A stretch of 55,959 nt of DNA, counting the filler, from Platydemus manokwari (lineage: Eukaryota), in the NCBI GenBank assembly GCA_037951405.1. It is 5 parts of 5 records of this genome, joined end to end, with 100 filler letters (N's around TTAATTAATTAA, not from the genome) between each part and the next. Parts side by side here need not be neighbours in the genome. Positions count along the whole stretch, not along the records: positions 1 to 12,884 come from JBBMOY011925828.1; 4 more parts are not named here. The stretch is one strand, 5' to 3'. Shown here in pieces: positions 1 to 14,851 of the stretch. Made by a program: the position numbers and the translations under genes. Positions within the stretch are counted from its first letter, which is position 1. Every line of letters begins with the position of its first letter. Below the pieces are notes generated by a model, which saw only the letters and a program-made list of their open reading frames with translations, made no database searches and was not told the DNA's origin.

Positions 1-563
1 GGTGCAAATCTAGATGTGTCCATTGACGAAATGGCAGCTCGAGCAGAGGTGAGCATTTGAGTCAGGTCCGCTGCGTTAGTTTCATTCAGTTTAATTGCAT
101 CAATTAAAATTGGGTTCATCGAGGGTCCTGAGTTTTTTACGGTCTGTGTGGCAAGTTTTCTAAATAAAATGGTATCCGAGATTACTTTATTGATGTCGTT
201 GCGCAGTTGTGGGAGAACTGGTGTGTGGTAAATTGCTGAATTGTTGATATGGTCGAGGATATGCTGAATAATGAAGAGGCCACAGTCGTGTGAGTTGAGT
301 TGAAGTGGCAGGTCTGGTAAGAAAGATTGGTTGAGGATAAGTCCATCTTTTAGAGCGCATAAGTTCTGGAAAAGGTTATCCAGTTTGTTCCAAAGGCATC
401 TTTGTTCTGCTGATAGAGATTTAGTTGCTGGGTCAATGTAGTATGATGACATTTTGAGGCGGTCTGCGATGTAGAGATTCCAGTGATTGTTGTTCCAGTG
501 GATTAGCCAGTAAGCATTTAGCCAAGTTGCAAGTTTCCTGAAGGGGAATGAAGGATGGACGCG
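1..563 (-). CDS. Ulp1/SENP-family (peptidase C48) cysteine protease domain; partial ORF running off the window edge, probably part of the mobile element
   Basis: Not in the ORF track. Manual minus-strand translation is open from at least ~563 to 1: RVHPSFPFRKLATWLNAYWLIHWNNNHWNLYIADRLKMSSYYIDP...LPLQLNSHDCGLFIIQHI...FA. It has catalytic His (HW, 483-485), Asp (YIDP, 432-434), oxyanion Gln and Cys in QxNxxDCG (Cys 282-284), matching the C48 pattern. Confidence 0.85.
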
Positions 564-1959
564 GATGCAACAGTTAGAACATGAATACTTGGAGGAAGTG
601 AACCGACAAGCTCACATAAAGCATCTACGTGAACGCTGTTTAGTCTACCAAGAGGCTTTCCAAAAAGGGAAACCATACCAATCTTCACTGGATCATTCAT
701 ACGCTCAGGCTAGTGGCACCAGCTCAAGCAGCTCCACTAATTATCCGAAACTGATTTATAAGTTAGAAGAAGCACGGACTCTTCTGACAGCTAAAATGAA
801 TAATTATATGCAACTCACTCCGTCGAGAGAGCAAACAGACACCTCCAATGGGTTACAAACCCCTTGTCTATCACCGATAGTCATGCGCGTAGAGAAAGCA
901 TACACATGCAACGAATACGAAGAAGAAGGTGACACTACCAAGGTAGTAGACACGTGGGAAATCGAAGAAATTCCCAAGGAAAAGACAAATGAAGCTTAAC
1001 AAAGTCTTACTCAAGTAATCACTCCCGAAAATGTGTTCGCGACAATCGAATTAACAACTGGGGAACAAGCAACGTTGACTCAGTTCTCTCGTAACTTAGT
1101 AAGGGAAGCTCAAAGGAACCCCCTAGACTAACAAATGATCAAGAGTATCTTAAATAATCACATTTACACTGCTATACCTACAGATGTATTGGCTGCCGCT
1201 GCACCAATACTGGTTGAACTCTTGGACAAAGGAGCCATTTACCGAAAAGAAGTACAGTTACTCCTACAACGAAATGGGCTAGCCATTCGGAGTCAACCGC
1301 AAGGAGCACCGATGCTCACGCTGCACATTAGAACCAGTCATCACGGGAACTGGCTCAAGATATACTCTTGCTTCTCACACGTTTGCAAATTAAGACAGGA
1401 TATCCGGCAGGAGAAATCAATCACGGAACCATTCATCATCACAAATCAATCAAATCCGGTAGATGATGACGAATATTTAGTTGACGTAGGCTGCTTACCA
1501 GACTTCGTCACAGTAGTAAAGGTACTAATAACGCCAGTAGAATCTAAACAATGGAGGAGAATACCCACATAGTCCAAGGCAGAAATCGAGCCAGCAACGG
1601 GAAGAGTAGAAACACAGTTATCAGTAGTTTTGGATGAGGACATCCAAGAAACCTCTCAATTCATGGAATACCAGGCAGGGTATGACCCACAACCATCTCC
1701 ACCGCCACCAGAGCCCGTTGTAGATGAGATCATAGAAATTGTGGACCTCGATTCACCAGCTATTGCAAGCAATCAGAACCATGAGGAATTCATACGGGAG
1801 ATAGAAAACCCTCCTCCAGAACCAGAGCCACCGATTGTGCCAACACAGGACATTAGTGAACCACCGCGGAAACGAAGAAACAGAGACACACAAGCCCACA
1901 CCAACAGTCAAGTACAAGCACAGTTGCTACGAGGACTGGCGGACGACACAACTATAAAT

Positions 1960-2445
1960 TCCAAGCAAGACATTCAACAATGTCTCTTGCGAATAGCAAA
2001 AGGGATTGATCCCTACAATCAACGCATAACAGAAGTAACCACCGAGGGTTACGAAAAACTACTCAGCAACATAAGCAGATACATGCCTAGGATTTGACAG
2101 ATCACACATGATCATCCCACCGTTGATTCAGAAAACGTGCTATGGGAAATTATTAAAGGTGGAATAACTGCATCAAGAGCCAAAATCATACTGATCAATT
2201 TGGCAAATAAAATCATGATGGCGTCATACGGGGACACATCACACTACCAAGAAACATTGCAACAGACGATCAAATTAGCACATCGAACCATAGGAAAATG
2301 GATTCAAACGCAAGGAGGATGGACCCAGTTTGGATACAGCGAGTCACTCACCACAGAAGGACTAGGTAACCTCAACAATAATGGGTTAATAAACACATTG
2401 GTAAAAGTTATTCTTATATGCAGCTTGATAGGAAAAACATCTATG
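1960..2445 (+). pseudogene. Bcl-2-like domain within the element polyprotein (one internal stop at 2095-2097)
   Basis: BH3-like IQQCLLRIAKGID (~1972-2010), BH1-like EIIKGGITASRAKIIL (~2146-2193; NWGR replaced by TASR) and a strong BH2 IGKWIQTQGGWTQF (W at 2299). These are followed by hydrophobic LINTLVKVILICSLIG. Confidence 0.75.
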
Positions 2446-4203
2446 CTCACCGCATATGATTGTTCGAATCCCAAGCTGTCCACAATGTATTCGTTAGTTG
2501 ATCTGTTCGAATGTCCAGCAGTCAATGTCAACAGCGTCAGACAAGGGCCACGGGATTCCTATTACTTGTATCAGGAATTAGAGTTCTATCGAACTACAAT
2601 CAAGGAATGTAGGGTCACGAAGGCTACATTCGAATACTATTGAGGAGTCTTTAGCCGCTCATCTGTACTAGATGCCAAACTCATTGCTCGCAGCATCACA
2701 ATCGCACCTAAAGCTTGCCAAGATGCTTTCGTACAAAGAAAACTCAGAGTCGACAGCGAAGACACTCTCACAGCAGAAGTAGGCGAGAGACTTGTTGAAA
2801 CAATCACACGCGGAGGCAAAATCGGAACAGACTGGACATGTATTGGACGAAGCAATGGAGATATTGTCTCTCATGTGGTAGAAATCGAAGACTACACCGT
2901 CGAATTAGTACAATATGAAGGGACATTCGACATGAAAACCGAAAACATGACTCAGTAGCCACATTGTGTATCCAAGTTTAATAGCTGCAATGTAGACACA
3001 GCCACATTAGTATACGAAGCCCGAAGAGCTTACTGTGACGTGGCACTACTCAAACAAGCATCGTTCATCGCAATCAACGGAAGCGCATGGGACCATCATA
3101 TTCCAGGCTGACACAAGGCCGACTAGATGGACGAATCGAAGAAGAGACATTGATCAAAAAGAGTGCTTCAATGGTACTAATATCCGACCAACAAACCGAC
3201 GCTATACGACGGATACGCGGACAGTCACTGGACAAATGTGGGACGCTAATGTACGAAACAAACTATCAAGGGATCTATGTGAGCCACCAGAGTGCTCGAG
3301 ATGCCAAAATTCTGAATGTCAAGGACGTCAAACTCACTACATACACCAACAATAAGGCCGATTACATATACCACGATCTGCTGCTACAATTAGCTACAAT
3401 TAGCAGAAACCCAGCATCATCAATGTAAAAGGGATCAAGAGATCGCACGAAACCGCATGGGCATAGTTATCACAAATCAGGACCTCGAAACACCCATTCT
3501 GATGGAAAATGGGGTGTACAGTCGAATCAGTGGTGAAGCATGGCACACTTACGAGTGTGAGCCAATTCAAGTCGCCATCGCAGACACTAAGAACTGCACA
3601 AGGGAGTTAGCAGTAATCTACAAGGAACAAACCAGGTACATTCAACCCATCACTCACATATTGCTTCCACCACAAAAGACAGAATGTAATCCACTGATTT
3701 CACCATTGTACAAGATTAATGAACAATGGGTGACTATACCGGATCGAAGACCACCTCGAAGTCCAGTACAACTGCTTAGGTTGGGAAACTCATTGACTAC
3801 TCGCGAATTCCAGTCCATATTTTCCACTGGAAAAAGGGGAGTCTACACCTCTAAGGACATTGCCGAAGCACGCAGAGCATTAGGATTTTACGAGCTCCGA
3901 GTCAGGGGAATAACAGAAATCATCAGGACAGTTTATCAGGATAGTGCAACCAGTCCGAACTATGATCACTTGTTCACAGTGGAACATCTCAAGAAAGCTG
4001 CTCACCATGTCACCTATCAAATATGGGGAGCCTTCGCAGCTTTTGGAACATTCATTACAAGATGCGTCGGCATTTATGTCATCTCCATAGGACTAAAAGT
4101 CATCATACAACGATTAGTATTCATGTATGACTTGTACAAACTGTTTGGCTGCTAATCAAAAATCATTTGCGGTATGTGCCCGATAATTGCCAACCGCCTC
4201 TTT
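2446..4203 (+). pseudogene. Chuvirus/Monjiviricetes-like fusion glycoprotein (env-like), disrupted by 3 stops and 2 frameshifts
   Basis: Ordered motifs typical of chuvirus-type glycoproteins: LTAYDC..SLVDLFEC; CRVTKATFEYY*GVFS (stop where the Cys of the CG motif is expected); CGTLMYETNYQGIYV; LTTYTNNKADYIY; QC...GVYSRISGEAWHTYECEPIQV; CTRELAV; PITHIL; CNPLISPLY; GVYT. The C-terminal hydrophobic block is IWGAFAAFGTFITRCVGIYVISIGLKVII...LFGC*SKIICGMC. Confidence 0.75.
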
Positions 4204-4679
4204 CATAAACATCATCACGGAAGAATGTACAAAATAGAAGAGATGATGAGAGAAATGAGACACGAAGTTCACTCTGCTCGACACGCCTCTTTTCGATCTG
4301 CCGTTTACGAGGAACAAGAAAAATACTACCCCTCCGACGAGGACAATGACAACGATAACGGCTATAGACCAAGTGGAACTGAGTCAATCATGATCGAGAA
4401 ACAGCCAACTCAACCCACGCTGCGGATGCAACAAACGATGAGAAACTACGAACAGGAACCATGCCTATCAACAGGCCAGAAACTATAACCGATATACCAG
4501 GAGAACAGTCACAGATACAGCCTCCTTCATACAGACAGTATTATACTCAGGTACAGTACCCAACTCAGGAATTACAAGTTATGGCCCAAACTGAACAAAT
4601 TACTGCGGAAGTAATGGTCAGAATGAACAGACAGAATCAACTGGGTTACAATGAATACTGCAACATAACCAACGAGTCA

Positions 4680-5180
4680 ACATGCACCGTCAAACTGACC
4701 CCGATCAGGATTAATAGACATCATGTCTTTGCATTAATTGATACGGGTGCTGATACTACAGTTATCTACCCTTGCATATTAAACGTACCAGAACTCATGA
4801 GTATCGGAAATACTAACGGAGTATCTATCATCGGAATCGATGGAAATGAACTACCACTCTTGGGATTACTCAGTTGCAAGATCCACCTCTGTGATCAGAC
4901 CATACCTATCGTAACAAGGGTTTCAAAGCTAAGCCCGTACGATTGCGTAATTGGAAAAGACACAATCCGACAGCTAAAGGACATCATGTACGAATGCGCT
5001 ACCGGTTCATTCATCAAAATGGTCAGAGACAGAAAAGCTCATCGAAACAATGTATATGCGGAACAGGAAATCATCATACCCCCTCGCTCAGAAACAATGT
5101 GTTATGTACAAACGAACCGGGCAGACGACGAAGAAGTTCTATTCGAACCCAGCAGTGCAATGATAGACCGCACGAATATA
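4680..5180 (+). pseudogene. Retropepsin (retroviral-type aspartic protease) plus post-protease linker, truncated before RT
   Basis: FALIDTGADTTVI (Asp codon 4740-4742), flap IIGIDG and CVIGKD. It is followed by VYAEQEIIIPPRSETMCYV, the kind of linker seen between PR and RT in metazoan Gypsy elements. Confidence 0.85.
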
Positions 5181-6010: not shown

Positions 6011-9000
6011 ATGGATATATCAAAGAGAAATTACTCAAACTTAGAGGATAAATTTTCCATGTAAACAAATATTAATTTTCATTAAAATTTAAGGAATAAA
6101 ATTTTTAGAAAGATCCCAGAAAAGCAAAATAGTAATCTCACAACTGCAACAATGCTTTTAGAAAAGCGTCGTGAGATGATTGAAATTGAAAATGCATTCA
6201 ATTCTCAAAAAGATGTAAGATGAAATTAGATATTAGCAAATTGTTATAAATGATTTAATTCATTTACATTGTTGGGAAATTTATTTTATTAATTTTAAGT
6301 TTTTTCTATCTGAAACTTGCCCATAAACAAATTACATAATATTTTCTAAGTGAATTTCAATATTGTTTAATTTGTATTAAATTAATTAATATAATTTGTA
6401 TTTCAAGTTATGTGGCTTTTCAAAACCATTCTTATTTCAATTTCATAGCGATTTTTTCGATGATATTTTGACAAAGTATTTGTCATTTTGAAATATTTGT
6501 TAAAATTGAATATATAACTATCAGAGAAATATACTATTTATAATAATAAGTCGCTAATTAACAACATTTATTTAATCAATTTGAATTATCTATTCAAAAT
6601 TTTGTAGAGTTTTTACAAAATAATAAACAGAAAAATGAAATTTCAACAAATTATATGAAATGAATTTTTATTTTTATCTATGTTATTGGAATATTTTTAT
6701 TCATAAATGAAATTCTCGAATCGAAATTGTAGGAATTTAAAATGAAAATGGAAAGTTTTCGACAAAGAAAACACGAATTGGACAGAAAAGAATTGGAATT
6801 ATCATCATCCTTATTGAAATTTAATAAATTTCTCAAAGAAAACGAATCGAAACGAAACAGAGCTCTCCATAAAACGTCAATCGAACTGGAAAATCAAAAG
6901 AACAAAGACAAGGAAATAATGGAGTTGGTTTGGTATTTGGTGTTTTAATATATCTTTAATATTCACTCCACAACAAAAAACAACAGTTTCAAACAAACAT
7001 TGGTTCTTTATCGAAATAAACAAGAAAAATTGAAATCGAAATTGGAACGATATCGATTGTATTTGACATTTTTCGAGAGTGTTATAGAGATAACAGAGGA
7101 ATTCACAGAAATCAAAGAAATCGTTGATCGTTATTCGACGCTTGCTAGTGCTCATGATGTAAGTTCAATGAAGGTGATTGGATCAATGTTTTGATGTCGA
7201 TGATTTCAGGATTTATTGGAGCGAAATAAAAATAATCAAATAGCTGTCAATGAGGAGAAACAAAATATGATGCAATTAAAAGAAGTTTTAATTTTTGCAT
7301 TTGTTTTAATTGATTGATTTTTATAATTTAATTTTAAATTTAAAATTTCATTCCGTGATAGAAGGGGGAGATAATATCATTTTAAAATCATTTTTCTATA
7401 CCAGTTCAAGACATGAATGATGTTAATATATAATGCCAAAAAATTTGACTTACAACTCATCGATCAATCTTTTGAGTTGTTTTAATTTTATCAAGAACCT
7501 CATAACATTCAATATTGATATTTTGTTGATCTAGTTTGATTTGATTAGATTTGATATTATTTTCAAAATTATTATTGCTAGACGCTTTTATTTTATAAAA
7601 CGCGCATTGAAAATGAATTGAAAAATCACGACACCAGATTATATTTTCATTACAATGATTTAAACAAATTAATATTTTATATTTTTTCAAATTTCAATTC
7701 ATTATAAATCCTCACATCTTCCATTTCTTTAAAATCTTTGATTTTCTCTGAATTCTTAATTATATCTGTGTCGAATTTTCTAGATAAATTTATCTATGTA
7801 AACATTTTTTTCGCATCTACTTTCTATTTTCTTTATATCACTTCTACATATTCTCTTTATCTTTTATACAACTATGCTGTATCCTTCTTACATCTTTTCT
7901 ATAGGTTCCTCCTCCTCTCCTATACTTCCATGCCACAGATAATCTCAGAATCGAATTCAAATGCGTGGTCGCCATGTAAGCCCCTACTATTTAATAAAGA
8001 ATGCATTGAAACCTAAGTGAAAAGTCAAGCCACAAAAATATATTTTTATTTCAATTATTAAAACAAATAAATATTTCATAAAAATCTGATTTTAAATTTT
8101 TTCAAATTTCAATTTATTATAAATCCTCACAATTATCATTAATATTGCAGCTATGTAGGAGCGTGTTTGGAATTATATTCTGGATTTTATTAATTTGTCT
8201 TTCCTATAATTTTGATTATTAATATTAAAATTACAATTTCAAGTTAGTCTTCATAACTATCTATTTAAACAAACGATTTAATACACAACGCTCATTCGTT
8301 GAATGGATGGCTCCATTTGACGAACCGATATTAATCCCTGAATTGAAAATCTTTCTTCAATACGTTCTGATCGTCCTTCCATTAATAAGAACCATGAGTA
8401 GAATGGACTACAAGACGATCTCTCCTTGGACAGTTTGTTGAAATTGTCAATGGTTTGATTTGAAAAATATTGAGTAAATGAAATCTGTCAATTGATCATG
8501 AGTCCATCATGAGGATGATTATATCAAAGATAAGTGAGATTTCGAATTGGTGAAGATAAAATATTTTATAATTAAATTTTATAAAACATTTTTCAAAGAT
8601 TAAAAAAAACTTGGAATAAAATTTGTTATCTCATAAAAAAACTGAACAATAAATTATATTTAATTAATTGGATAAAACTAAAATTAGATCAACATCTCTA
8701 TTCCAGCTGAGGTCGCGAAATAATAAACAAATAATCAATCATTAAATAAAATCAAAATATTCTCGCTCAATTTTGTTTGTACTTCAATGTTTTCATTTTT
8801 CTTTTGACTGTAGAATAGCAATGGGCAGATTATTCGATGTAATAATCGGCAAGGAATTTTACAATTAGAATATGACCGTCTTCAATCGATAAGTTTGGAA
8901 AAATCAGCAGAATGGAATTCCTTAATCAGTGAAGTGGCCCAAAAAACTTTGGAATATGGGAAAATAAAAATGTTAGATAATTTGATTTTTATGTCCAATA

Positions 9001-12801: not shown

Positions 12802-13168
12802 AAACCAAAAACCCACATTAATTAAAATGTAGGCGTGTGGGCGGAATGATATTAATAATAGATATAAAATTTTTTCGACAAATTNNNNNNNNNNNNNNNN
12901 NNNNNNNNNNNNNNNNNNNNNNNNNNNNTTAATTAATTAANNNNNNNNNNNNNNNNNNNNNNNNNNNNNNNNNNNNNNNNNNNNTATTTATTACTTTAGT
13001 TTTTTATTATTAGAAATTTTTAAGTGAAATCTTTTAAAATTAAATAAATCAGAGAATAAAATTTATTTTAAAAATCACATTAAAAATAATTTTAACGAAT
13101 ATAATTTCAGATAAATATTAAAATTTTCTATTTATTGCTTGCTTTCATTAGTGACATTATTAAGTTTA

Positions 13169-14851
13169 ATGATGCTGGATTTACCAAACAATTACGATTG
13201 TCTAATTTGTTACGACAATTTAGAAGATGTCGACTTTTTCCGGATGATTTCATGCAAACATGAATTCTGTAAATCGTGTTTTTACGAAATCTTATTCAGT
13301 GACGAGATTGAAATAGTTCGATGTCCTTACGACACAATGCAAGACGATAAATTTGAATTTGTCGAAAAGAATGAAAATAATGAAAGAAATATTTTGTTCA
13401 AAAATAGTGCACAATATCGCCTAGAACATATTCCTGATGCCATCGAATATTTTTACGACGAAATTGAAAATCATTACTTTAACGTGCTAAAAGTTGCCAT
13501 AAAGAACAATGATTTAATGATAAATATCGATAAAACGTATGCAGAATTCTTACAAAATTGTACTCTTTTAATAGGTAGGATCAATGGTAACAATGATACT
13601 GAAATCAAGAACCAAATAAAGGAATTAGCACTTCAGCACGTTGTGACGGTCAATAATTTTCAAAATAACGAACAATTGAATCCCTGTATAAAGTACAATA
13701 TTATTTATAATTCTATAAAACATATGGACCCAAATAAAATCAATCCTAAAATGATTAAAAAGATTTTCGATTGGAAGTTGATCGATAAATTATTAAATAA
13801 TTTTGGAAATTTTAGTTGCCATGCTTTATTTCAAAGTGAAAATTTTACCAACCTTAAATTCGTCGAGAAATTTACAGAAGTAACCAATCAATCGATTAGT
13901 TTGAGGAAATACATGTCAATGTTCATTATTTCGATTATTTTATCAATATCCAATAGCAAAAACAATCTTTACCAGCAGGCACTGCCTAATATTTATCGAA
14001 ATAGTACAGACAGTTGTCTCGTTTGTTTCAGACAGATCGATGGAATACAATACGCAAAATTTGCTGAATGTAATCACAAAATATGTATTGATTGTGTCAA
14101 TAAATTTATGATGACGAATTGTTGCTGTCCATTTGATGAAAAAGAAGCTAATCAAACATTAATGATTATGGAAAATGATTTGTGGATATCAACGTATCAA
14201 TATCTGTTTAATAATCATGCCGAAAATATAAATTCAAAAATCAAATCATTTTTAGGCTTTTGCAGTGAAAGAGTTTCAAACATTGCATCAATACTCTCGG
14301 ATATTCTAACATTTTTCATTCAATTTCATCAAACCATCGAATCGGATCCCGAAACACCAAACATCACAATGTCGGACGCAATGAGAAAAATTATCCTTCT
14401 CCTATTTGACCATTCTGGATTGAGTAAACTTCTTCAAGTGACACAATATTCCTACCAAGCTTACCTATTTAACTGTGAAATGATGGCAGATCAGTGTCGA
14501 TTGAATATTAATAATAATAACAATAAAAGATTCCACAAATTTACGAGAGATTTGAAAAGGGTTGTCACAGCAAATACAAAGTTTCTGAGCAAAATGCACA
14601 AATCCCTGATTGATTTTATCAGTAAAATTTACAATTATTTATGGCTATCACACATGGATGTTCATTTGAAATATTCGATTATTCTGAAATACTTTTTGAA
14701 AATGCAGGATATTTGTGAGTTGGTTTTTCAATGTAAAAATCCAAATGAATGTCAATGTCCTATGAACCAATCAATGGAACAATTGAAAACCATTATGGAT
14801 AAATTAAGCAACTTCTTGATAACAATGAAAAGAGAAGGAAAATGGCCGTGA
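13169..14851 (+). CDS. Intronless protein with two RING fingers (putative E3 ubiquitin ligase), ~560 aa
   Basis: Long ORF in very AT-rich DNA; the first ATG is at 13169 (the ORF track starts at an upstream TTG). RING1 is CLIC..CKHEFCKSC..CPYD and RING2 is CLVC..CNHKICIDC..CPFD. Each is followed by a helical region. Confidence 0.8.
   Translation: MMLDLPNNYDCLICYDNLEDVDFFRMISCKHEFCKSCFYEILFSDEIEIVRCPYDTMQDDKFEFVEKNENNERNILFKNSAQYRLEHIPDAIEYFYDEIENHYFNVLKVAIKNNDLMINIDKTYAEFLQNCTLLIGRINGNNDTEIKNQIKELALQHVVTVNNFQNNEQLNPCIKYNIIYNSIKHMDPNKINPKMIKKIFDWKLIDKLLNNFGNFSCHALFQSENFTNLKFVEKFTEVTNQSISLRKYMSMFIISIILSISNSKNNLYQQALPNIYRNSTDSCLVCFRQIDGIQYAKFAECNHKICIDCVNKFMMTNCCCPFDEKEANQTLMIMENDLWISTYQYLFNNHAENINSKIKSFLGFCSERVSNIASILSDILTFFIQFHQTIESDPETPNITMSDAMRKIILLLFDHSGLSKLLQVTQYSYQAYLFNCEMMADQCRLNINNNNNKRFHKFTRDLKRVVTANTKFLSKMHKSLIDFISKIYNYLWLSHMDVHLKYSIILKYFLKMQDICELVFQCKNPNECQCPMNQSMEQLKTIMDKLSNFLITMKREGKWP

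Follow-up and report, generated by a model that had tools for sequence, protein, structure and literature searches.

The window analysed here is a stretch of 55,959 nucleotides from Platydemus manokwari, made up of five parts of five records joined end to end. Near its start lie the remains of a Gypsy GAG-ENV-POL (Burro-like) LTR retroelement, a decayed internal fragment whose features are collected in Table 1. Sister copies cover positions 544–5179 at 81–90% DNA identity by blastn and carry Gag and zinc-knuckle sequence upstream, and Pol downstream, of the equivalent region, and the GC content of the element is 0.44 against ~0.25 in the flanking DNA. The window copy is truncated at both its 5′ and 3′ ends, breaking off at ~5180; Gag and the RT-RNase H-integrase region are missing, and the copy shows no long terminal repeats. 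The frame that holds the junction described below (+1) contains seven stops between positions 997 and 3109, the envelope region has frame changes, and a further stop interrupts the membrane block at the envelope C-terminus; this copy is dead. A Ulp1/C48 protease-like frame adjoins the element at positions 3–611 on the minus strand (E 5e-6). Elsewhere in the window, short exon-like coiled-coil frames at 6733–7300 (+) presumably resemble CCDC42/CFAP73, and a 578-residue open frame with two RING fingers occupies 13115–14851 (+).

Table 1. Features of the retroelement copy in the window; positions count along the whole stretch
Feature	Positions	Strand	Basis or remark
Decayed Gypsy GAG-ENV-POL fragment	544..5180	+	blastn to sister copies; GC contrast; gene content of sister copies
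BH3-like motif (LRGLAD), upstream of the Bcl-2 bundle as modelled	1909..1947	+	Motif spacing in copies
Divergent Bcl-2-like domain	1960..2322	+	Pfam, profile search, model; start approximate, stop at 2095
BH1-like segment	2149-2202	+	
BH2	2299-2322	+	
Polar spacer, poorly conserved, length varying by lineage	2323..2385	+	Identity among lineage representatives
Hydrophobic helix with polar c-region; likely the envelope protein's internal signal sequence	2386..2445	+	
gB-like (class III) envelope ectodomain from LTAYDC, broken by stops and frame changes	2446..3984	+	PF24664 in four pieces
Membrane block at the envelope C-terminus: one main TM followed by helices that are amphipathic or weakly hydrophobic	4021..4200	+	Stop at 4153
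Main envelope TM	4051-4107	+	
Linker and retroviral-type aspartic protease, ending with the copy	4383..5180	+	PF00077, E 1.2e-4, above cut-off

The protein encoded across the junction has 151 matches in the genome, and the window's own subfamily is represented by fragments only. In one relative, L031, Gag zinc knuckles, Env, protease, RT, RNase H and integrase follow one another within a single uninterrupted frame; of this order the window copy keeps Env followed by protease. Gag-(ubiquitin-like)-Bcl-2-Env-protease-Pol is likely to be one long reading frame. Scans of L031 and of part of L030, two long open frames, showed no BIR, ankyrin or MATH domains. L031 and L073 share one contig (G000:C1468085), a distant relative of ~14.2 kb with a main open frame of ~3,300 residues and, after it, a second frame of 677 residues that has no Pfam match. 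This contig bears a 420-base direct repeat at its two ends, ~14 kb apart. The two repeats are just 88% alike despite the open main frame, which may reflect a collapsed assembly or recombination.

At the junction, the BH2 motif WIQTQGGW is followed in frame +1 by a 21-residue spacer, a hydrophobic helix (LINTLVKVILICSLI, 2386–2430), GKTSM up to position 2445 and, still in frame, LTAYDC (2446–2463); in the window copy the stretch from BH2 to this motif is free of stops. No other 12 residues in the frame 514–3111 are as hydrophobic as those of the helix, which have a Kyte-Doolittle mean of 2.56 (the next stretches reach 2.2 and 2.1), and in an open relative of 2,828 residues a comparably hydrophobic stretch lies just upstream of 2.6% of positions, the true site counted. 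With stops read as X, the Pfam family Monjiviricetes_fusion (PF24664, E 2e-13) starts inside the helix, at profile position 4. Among five lineage representatives, mean identity is 0.16–0.24 in the spacer, 0.41 in the Bcl-2-like domain and 0.52 in the helix. Among the copies, 34 of 37 same-frame junctions are stop-free between BH2 and the motif, and the three stops lie at three different places; this count omits the frameshifted L011, L012, L014/L024, L017 and L043, the duplicate L029, L026, which has no junction, and L039, L041, L048 and L049, in which no BH2 motif was located. An earlier note on this DNA had described a helix about 20 residues past BH2 that runs in frame into LTAYDC, and this junction is real. 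The note had also named a stop and restart between Bcl-2 and the glycoprotein in intact copies as a finding that would speak against its reading of the helix; we looked for this arrangement, and the 34 open junctions rule it out.

The same note had assigned the domain upstream of the helix to the Bcl-2 family. PF00452 matches the window frame at residues 710–774, ending at BH2, with an E of 0.0011, below the cut-off. Of 12 aligned copies, 10 match it as well, the best at E 8.5e-6; most if not all of these matches fall below the cut-off. A profile search finds Bcl-xL at E 1.2e-4. The predicted structure is of moderate quality (pLDDT 62) and matches the Bcl-2 family only, with a best Foldseek E of 1.5e-3 (no Bcl-2 match at E <= 0.001) and a VIA Z of 9.1 (rmsd 3.0, 106 residues), a value that is not decisive alone for helical bundles. 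Sequence profile, Pfam and fold agree, each weakly, in pointing to Bcl-2 and to nothing else, and the assignment is supported. Ahead of the modelled bundle, in a low-confidence part of the model, lies a BH3-like motif; its pattern, L[RKH]x[ILV][ASG]D, recurs in 13 of the 15 copies that were examined, at a distance of 125–134 residues upstream of BH2. As judged from sequence, this LRxIAD motif could be an extra BH3 acting on the domain's own groove or on host proteins. There are 62 Bcl-2 matches in the genome overall, and four proteins from outside it carry Bcl-2 ahead of the helix. Four loci (L050, L052, L053 and L054) form a family of intron-free Bcl-2 frames that resemble one another, with 175–182 residues and a classical C-terminal tail.

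Downstream of the helix, the Pfam pieces of the envelope protein reach position 4152 in the window, and in open relatives PF24664 matches at E 1e-83 to 1e-95. An envelope model built for an open relative on an alignment of 104 sequences reached a pLDDT of 87.3. Its top Foldseek matches are to herpesvirus gB (E 3.6e-14; 115 matches at E <= 0.001), and the family and the fold agree with the earlier reading of this protein as a class III envelope glycoprotein. In the model, a helix of 13 residues leads through a short loop into a strand that begins at the L of LxAYDC, where the mature ectodomain had been expected to start; this prediction favours a mature N-terminus at LTAYDC or slightly upstream. 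A hydrophobic core of 7–15 residues just before the mature N-terminus is what a signal peptide presents, and such a core is found here.

Whose helix this is can be judged from homologues that have no Bcl-2-like domain. A word-based search with the envelope gave no matches; a full HMMER search did find homologues, and in 65 of 97 that start with Met and have 600–800 residues the motif Tyr stands at residue 19–38 (median 25), where the start codons are gene-caller choices and the motif assignment required an upstream hydrophobic stretch, which makes the hydrophobicity of this set circular and leaves the distance from Met unaffected. Of the remaining 32, 5 have the motif Tyr further in and 27 were left unassigned by the script. 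Two of ten homologue clusters checked hold named insect sequences, the others being without a name or 'hypothetical'; from their sequences, the stand-alone homologues are chuvirus-like glycoproteins by family, not by label. Independently of the motif script, PF24664 begins inside the helix in every scanned polyprotein with a full match. Eleven related polyproteins keep the helix with no detectable Bcl-2 before it, a set in which P0005 and P0011 have fewer than 170 residues of upstream sequence and P0005 and P0006 are near-duplicates. The helix sits, as the earlier note had it, at the position of the envelope signal peptide, and its assignment as the envelope's own signal, likely an internal signal sequence in the polyprotein, is well supported by these comparisons. 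In two further proteins the same kind of helix and glycoprotein follow in frame after a chromodomain (P0070) or after DUF5641 (P0083); these are Pol-Env fusions with an internal signal. P0009, a GAG-ENV-POL polyprotein, is recorded as a hypothetical protein from a metagenome bin labelled Flavobacteriaceae; its DNA in that bin is likely of animal origin.

We next consider on which side of the membrane the downstream enzymes would lie. Hydrophobic segments were scored by a crude dG that has no position terms and whose scale values we assume to be correct. The first C-terminal segment of the envelope is strong (−0.9 to 1.9; 12/15 sequences, anchored by script) and the later one is weak and contains several Lys/Arg (4.2–15.1); in the decayed window copy the C-terminal segments score 3.3 and 6.8, and the same strong-then-weak pattern recurs in stand-alone glycoproteins. 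The Pol region of three polyproteins has no strong hydrophobic segment (best 4.8–8.3). After integrase, in the same frame, come a second signal-like helix, a domain of 210–310 residues with Cys, a Ser/Thr-rich stalk and 2–8 sequons, a TM and a basic tail. This module is present in the window's own subfamily and in four distant relatives (for example L071 5943–7014 (+) and L073 1161–2430); the truncated window copy lacks it. Its signal is seen in L070, L071, L078, L079, L082, L086, L073, P0005, P0006 and P0009, and signal, ectodomain and TM are complete in L071, L073, P0005, P0006 and P0009, whereas P0019 has the second signal only and P0020 ends earlier. The signal is weak in L073 (KD12 1.84). 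Of 12 loci of the window's subfamily that were fetched, six cover this region, and in all six the second signal is in frame with the integrase end; two of them have stops, at different places. No Pfam family matches the second ectodomain, and Atlas leads to PTEN C2 were found only below 0.9.

The post-integrase module makes topological sense only with Pol on the cytosolic side, which implies that the envelope passes the membrane an odd number of times. The earlier note had proposed that the C-terminal block returns the protease and polymerase to the cytosol; the one strong TM and the post-integrase module fit this, and from the sequences the block most likely crosses once, two or three passes being possible. 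The second segment, ~30 residues after the first and conserved in most homologues, reaches KD19 1.3–1.7 in several sequences and would favour an even number of crossings, with Pol needing a separate route to the cytosol. Yet that segment is much weaker than the first and carries its several Lys/Arg, and the envelope fold is gB-like, gB being a single-pass protein. With the orientation of the post-integrase signal, sequon-rich domain, TM and basic tail also opposed to it, we regard an even number as very improbable.

Taken together, the comparisons make it probable that the helix is an internal signal in one long polyprotein, with a lumenal ectodomain, a cytosolic Pol, four crossings and cleavage near LTAYDC. 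Counting against this are the weakness of the helix in the window's clade, the unusual −1 residue before LTAYDC discussed below and the low score of the window's own TM. The ribosome would first produce Gag and the Bcl-2-like domain on the cytosolic side. Inserted at the ER with its N-side cytosolic, the helix would then direct the gB-like ectodomain to the lumen. The one envelope TM would bring protease, RT and integrase back to the cytosol, and the second internal signal, after integrase, would send the small glycoprotein domain into the lumen. The last TM would end with the basic cytosolic tail, giving four crossings overall. Cleavage by signal peptidase would fall at LTAYDC or no more than a few residues away, leaving the Bcl-2 domain at first on the ER helix; its lasting stay there is a possibility only. 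Internal signals of this kind have precedent in the available text of PMC8310223.

That lasting stay is the dual use proposed in the earlier note, in which the helix remains after cleavage as the tail anchor of the Bcl-2-like domain. Kept on the ER in this way, the domain would damp cell death in particle-making cells. The geometry allows it: there is one hydrophobic segment only between BH2 and the ectodomain, it starts ~18–28 residues past BH2 in most lineages including the window's (Trp-to-Tyr distance 41–53), and this spacing is close to that of four host-type Bcl-2 tails in the genome. In related viruses, moreover, combined anchor and signal sequences stay on the upstream protein, according to the available text of PMC8310223. 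Against it, the helix is present in the 11 polyproteins without Bcl-2 and is weaker where Bcl-2 precedes it, with median crude dG values of 4.0–4.6 versus 2.2 without Bcl-2 (26 versus 11 sequences, p 0.003–0.03, or 0.06–0.30 minus the window's clade, the sequences being related); stand-alone glycoprotein signals have a median of 2.7. The BH2-to-helix spacer also varies, from ~20 to ~200 residues; measured from the BH2 Trp to the motif Tyr, the distance spans 41–91 residues, reaching 63, 80, 86 and 91 in some lineages, and possibly 229 in one lineage of unclear Bcl-2. Signal peptide peptidase or the element protease could, besides, free the Bcl-2 domain, for which HCV and flaviviruses offer precedents in the same text (PMC8310223). 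A tail-anchored protein has its single TM at the C-terminus; here the frame continues into Env, and a C-terminal position of the helix on the Bcl-2 part would arise only after cleavage.

The idea that the helix is a Bcl-2 tail by origin or selection is not supported: Bcl-2 can be absent, its presence makes the helix no stronger, and the distance between helix and BH2 varies; an origin from a Bcl-2-derived tail is rejected on the 11 polyproteins that keep it without Bcl-2. A quick envelope tree (SH-aLRT support only; 44 rows, 12 of them under half filled and none from published elements) places the polyprotein envelopes on one side of a branch (96). Bcl-2-less rows branch first with weak support (81–84), and three Bcl-2-less rows nest with one Bcl-2-bearing row (98), where the Bcl-2 label of L044 was given by eye. 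These groupings hint that Bcl-2 came and went while the helix stayed, the Bcl-2 domain being an optional insert in front of the envelope signal. The tail-anchor role is positional only, possible but unsupported, and we hold dual use to be on balance doubtful.

How and when the envelope is released bears on the same helix. Signal peptidase sites carry small residues at −3 and −1. The site before LTAYDC obeys this rule in 22 of the 24 polyproteins from outside the window's clade and in 47 of the 65 stand-alone glycoproteins, versus 1 of 22 copies of that clade, where −1 is Met, Leu or Ile in 21 of 22. Of the earlier proposal that cleavage falls just before LTAYDC, the modelled ectodomain start speaks for the general position, and the broken rule at −1 in the window's clade leaves the exact site doubtful. 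Because of this bulky residue, cleavage in the clade may, to judge from sequence, be shifted or slow. A delay in signal peptidase cleavage would suit the bulky −1 residue, which recurs across several lineages of the clade, and the available texts describe gB-type ectodomains flanked by two TMs in some elements (PMC13524379) and a precedent for delayed cleavage (PMC8310223). Nevertheless, adjoining sites obey the rule, after GKT/GKS, two residues earlier, in 20 of 22 copies and after LxA in 21 of 22, and the 22 copies share one ancestor and represent about one or two events; we consider a delay rather unlikely. If cleavage were delayed, Gag, the captured Bcl-2 and Env would be kept tethered across the ER membrane until the element protease acts, within a converged flavivirus-style four-crossing polyprotein with two membrane proteins, and the capsid would be coupled to the envelope with an apoptosis regulator at the budding site. 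This extended scheme we think unlikely.

A different route to the envelope would be a separate spliced or internally initiated message, in which the helix would act like any N-terminal signal peptide, with the long frame left to serve Gag-Pol. A Met at the helix start in 8 of 9 close copies would give a 22-residue peptide resembling a normal signal peptide, but this Met is present in just 3 of 13 sister-lineage copies, and a conserved internal start was rejected as not universal. The full-length frame would, in any case, still carry the helix and TM and hence still meet the ER. That Env comes mainly from such a message is in our view quite improbable. Dual use, delayed cleavage and a separate env message are not mutually exclusive.

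The internal signal, together with one TM, would suffice for an element to carry env between gag and pol in one frame without its polymerase entering the ER lumen. Should Bcl-2 indeed stay on the helix, a jumping gene would be positioning a captured regulator of cell death at the ER without needing any additional coding sequence. Compared with tail-anchored Bcl-2 proteins, cellular Bcl-xL and viral KsBcl-2 and BHRF1, the domain here shares a helical bundle, BH1- and BH2-like segments and one hydrophobic helix, whereas what we take to be the NWGR signature of Bcl-2 is degenerate. Unlike their tails, the helix is not C-terminal as translated, is the glycoprotein's by homology, and is both shorter and weaker, with 13 residues in the model, a Lys in its middle and a crude dG of ~4 in the window's clade versus 0.1–3.0 for the four host-type tails.

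Elements of this class are already in print. The Burro/GYPSM1 giant planarian gypsy-like LTR elements have, as here, a BCL2-like motif, an in-frame Env and a protease (PMC6431247). The available text of that account relates the Burro Env, which lies between gag and pol, to mononegavirus fusion glycoproteins, and describes a ubiquitin-like motif before BCL-2 and a dUTPase-like region after protease that the elements here share; its section 7 is without signal peptides, tail anchors or topology. Unlike Burro, which is near 30 kb, the relatives here are compact (~14 kb, one contig) and, in the two frames scanned, without BIR, ankyrin or MATH. BURRO1 RNA was seen after smedwi-2 RNAi, as reported in the available part of PMC8532177. 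The GAG-ENV-POL errantiviruses of the HSV/gB type from Platyhelminthes, Nematoda and Bryozoa have the same gene order in the available text of Chary and Hayashi 2026 (PMC13524379), a likeness by description and not by sequence comparison. There, the authors' DeepTMHMM results place the gB-type ectodomain between a signal peptide and a TM or between two TMs, and two Schmidtea elements span ~14.8 kb. The earlier note had called the topology unusual for a retroelement; with a signal or TM before a gB-type ectodomain already published in GAG-ENV-POL elements, this overstated the novelty. The main text of PMC13524379, as available, does not use 'Bcl', 'polyprotein', 'in-frame' or 'fused' and offers no reading of the junction as a signal internal to one frame, nor do the available portions of PMC12440569, PMC10084718, PMC7642597 and PMC8532177 address it. 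Our search, outside which most subscription papers lay, found no paper that states dual use of the helix or a topology with four crossings. Already published are the class of element, its Bcl-2 motif and a signal or TM ahead of the ectodomain (PMC6431247, PMC13524379); new here are the comparative assignment of the helix to Env, the odd cleavage site of the clade and the cross-check of topology from a second membrane protein.

The same glycoprotein family has been captured by another LTR element, Anakin (PMC7642597, available text), a BEL/Pao element in which the glycoprotein follows Pol, whereas here it lies between Gag and protease. A parallel in layout is offered by the polyproteins of Flaviviridae (HCV core-E1 and flavivirus C-prM; PMC8310223, available text), in which a cytosolic structural protein, an internal signal, a lumenal glycoprotein, a stop-transfer segment and a cytosolic protease and polymerase follow one another in like manner. 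The two are without homology, ours being a reverse-transcribing element with a class III fusogen, and an internal signal followed by a TM would be a solution that it has in common with unrelated RNA viruses.
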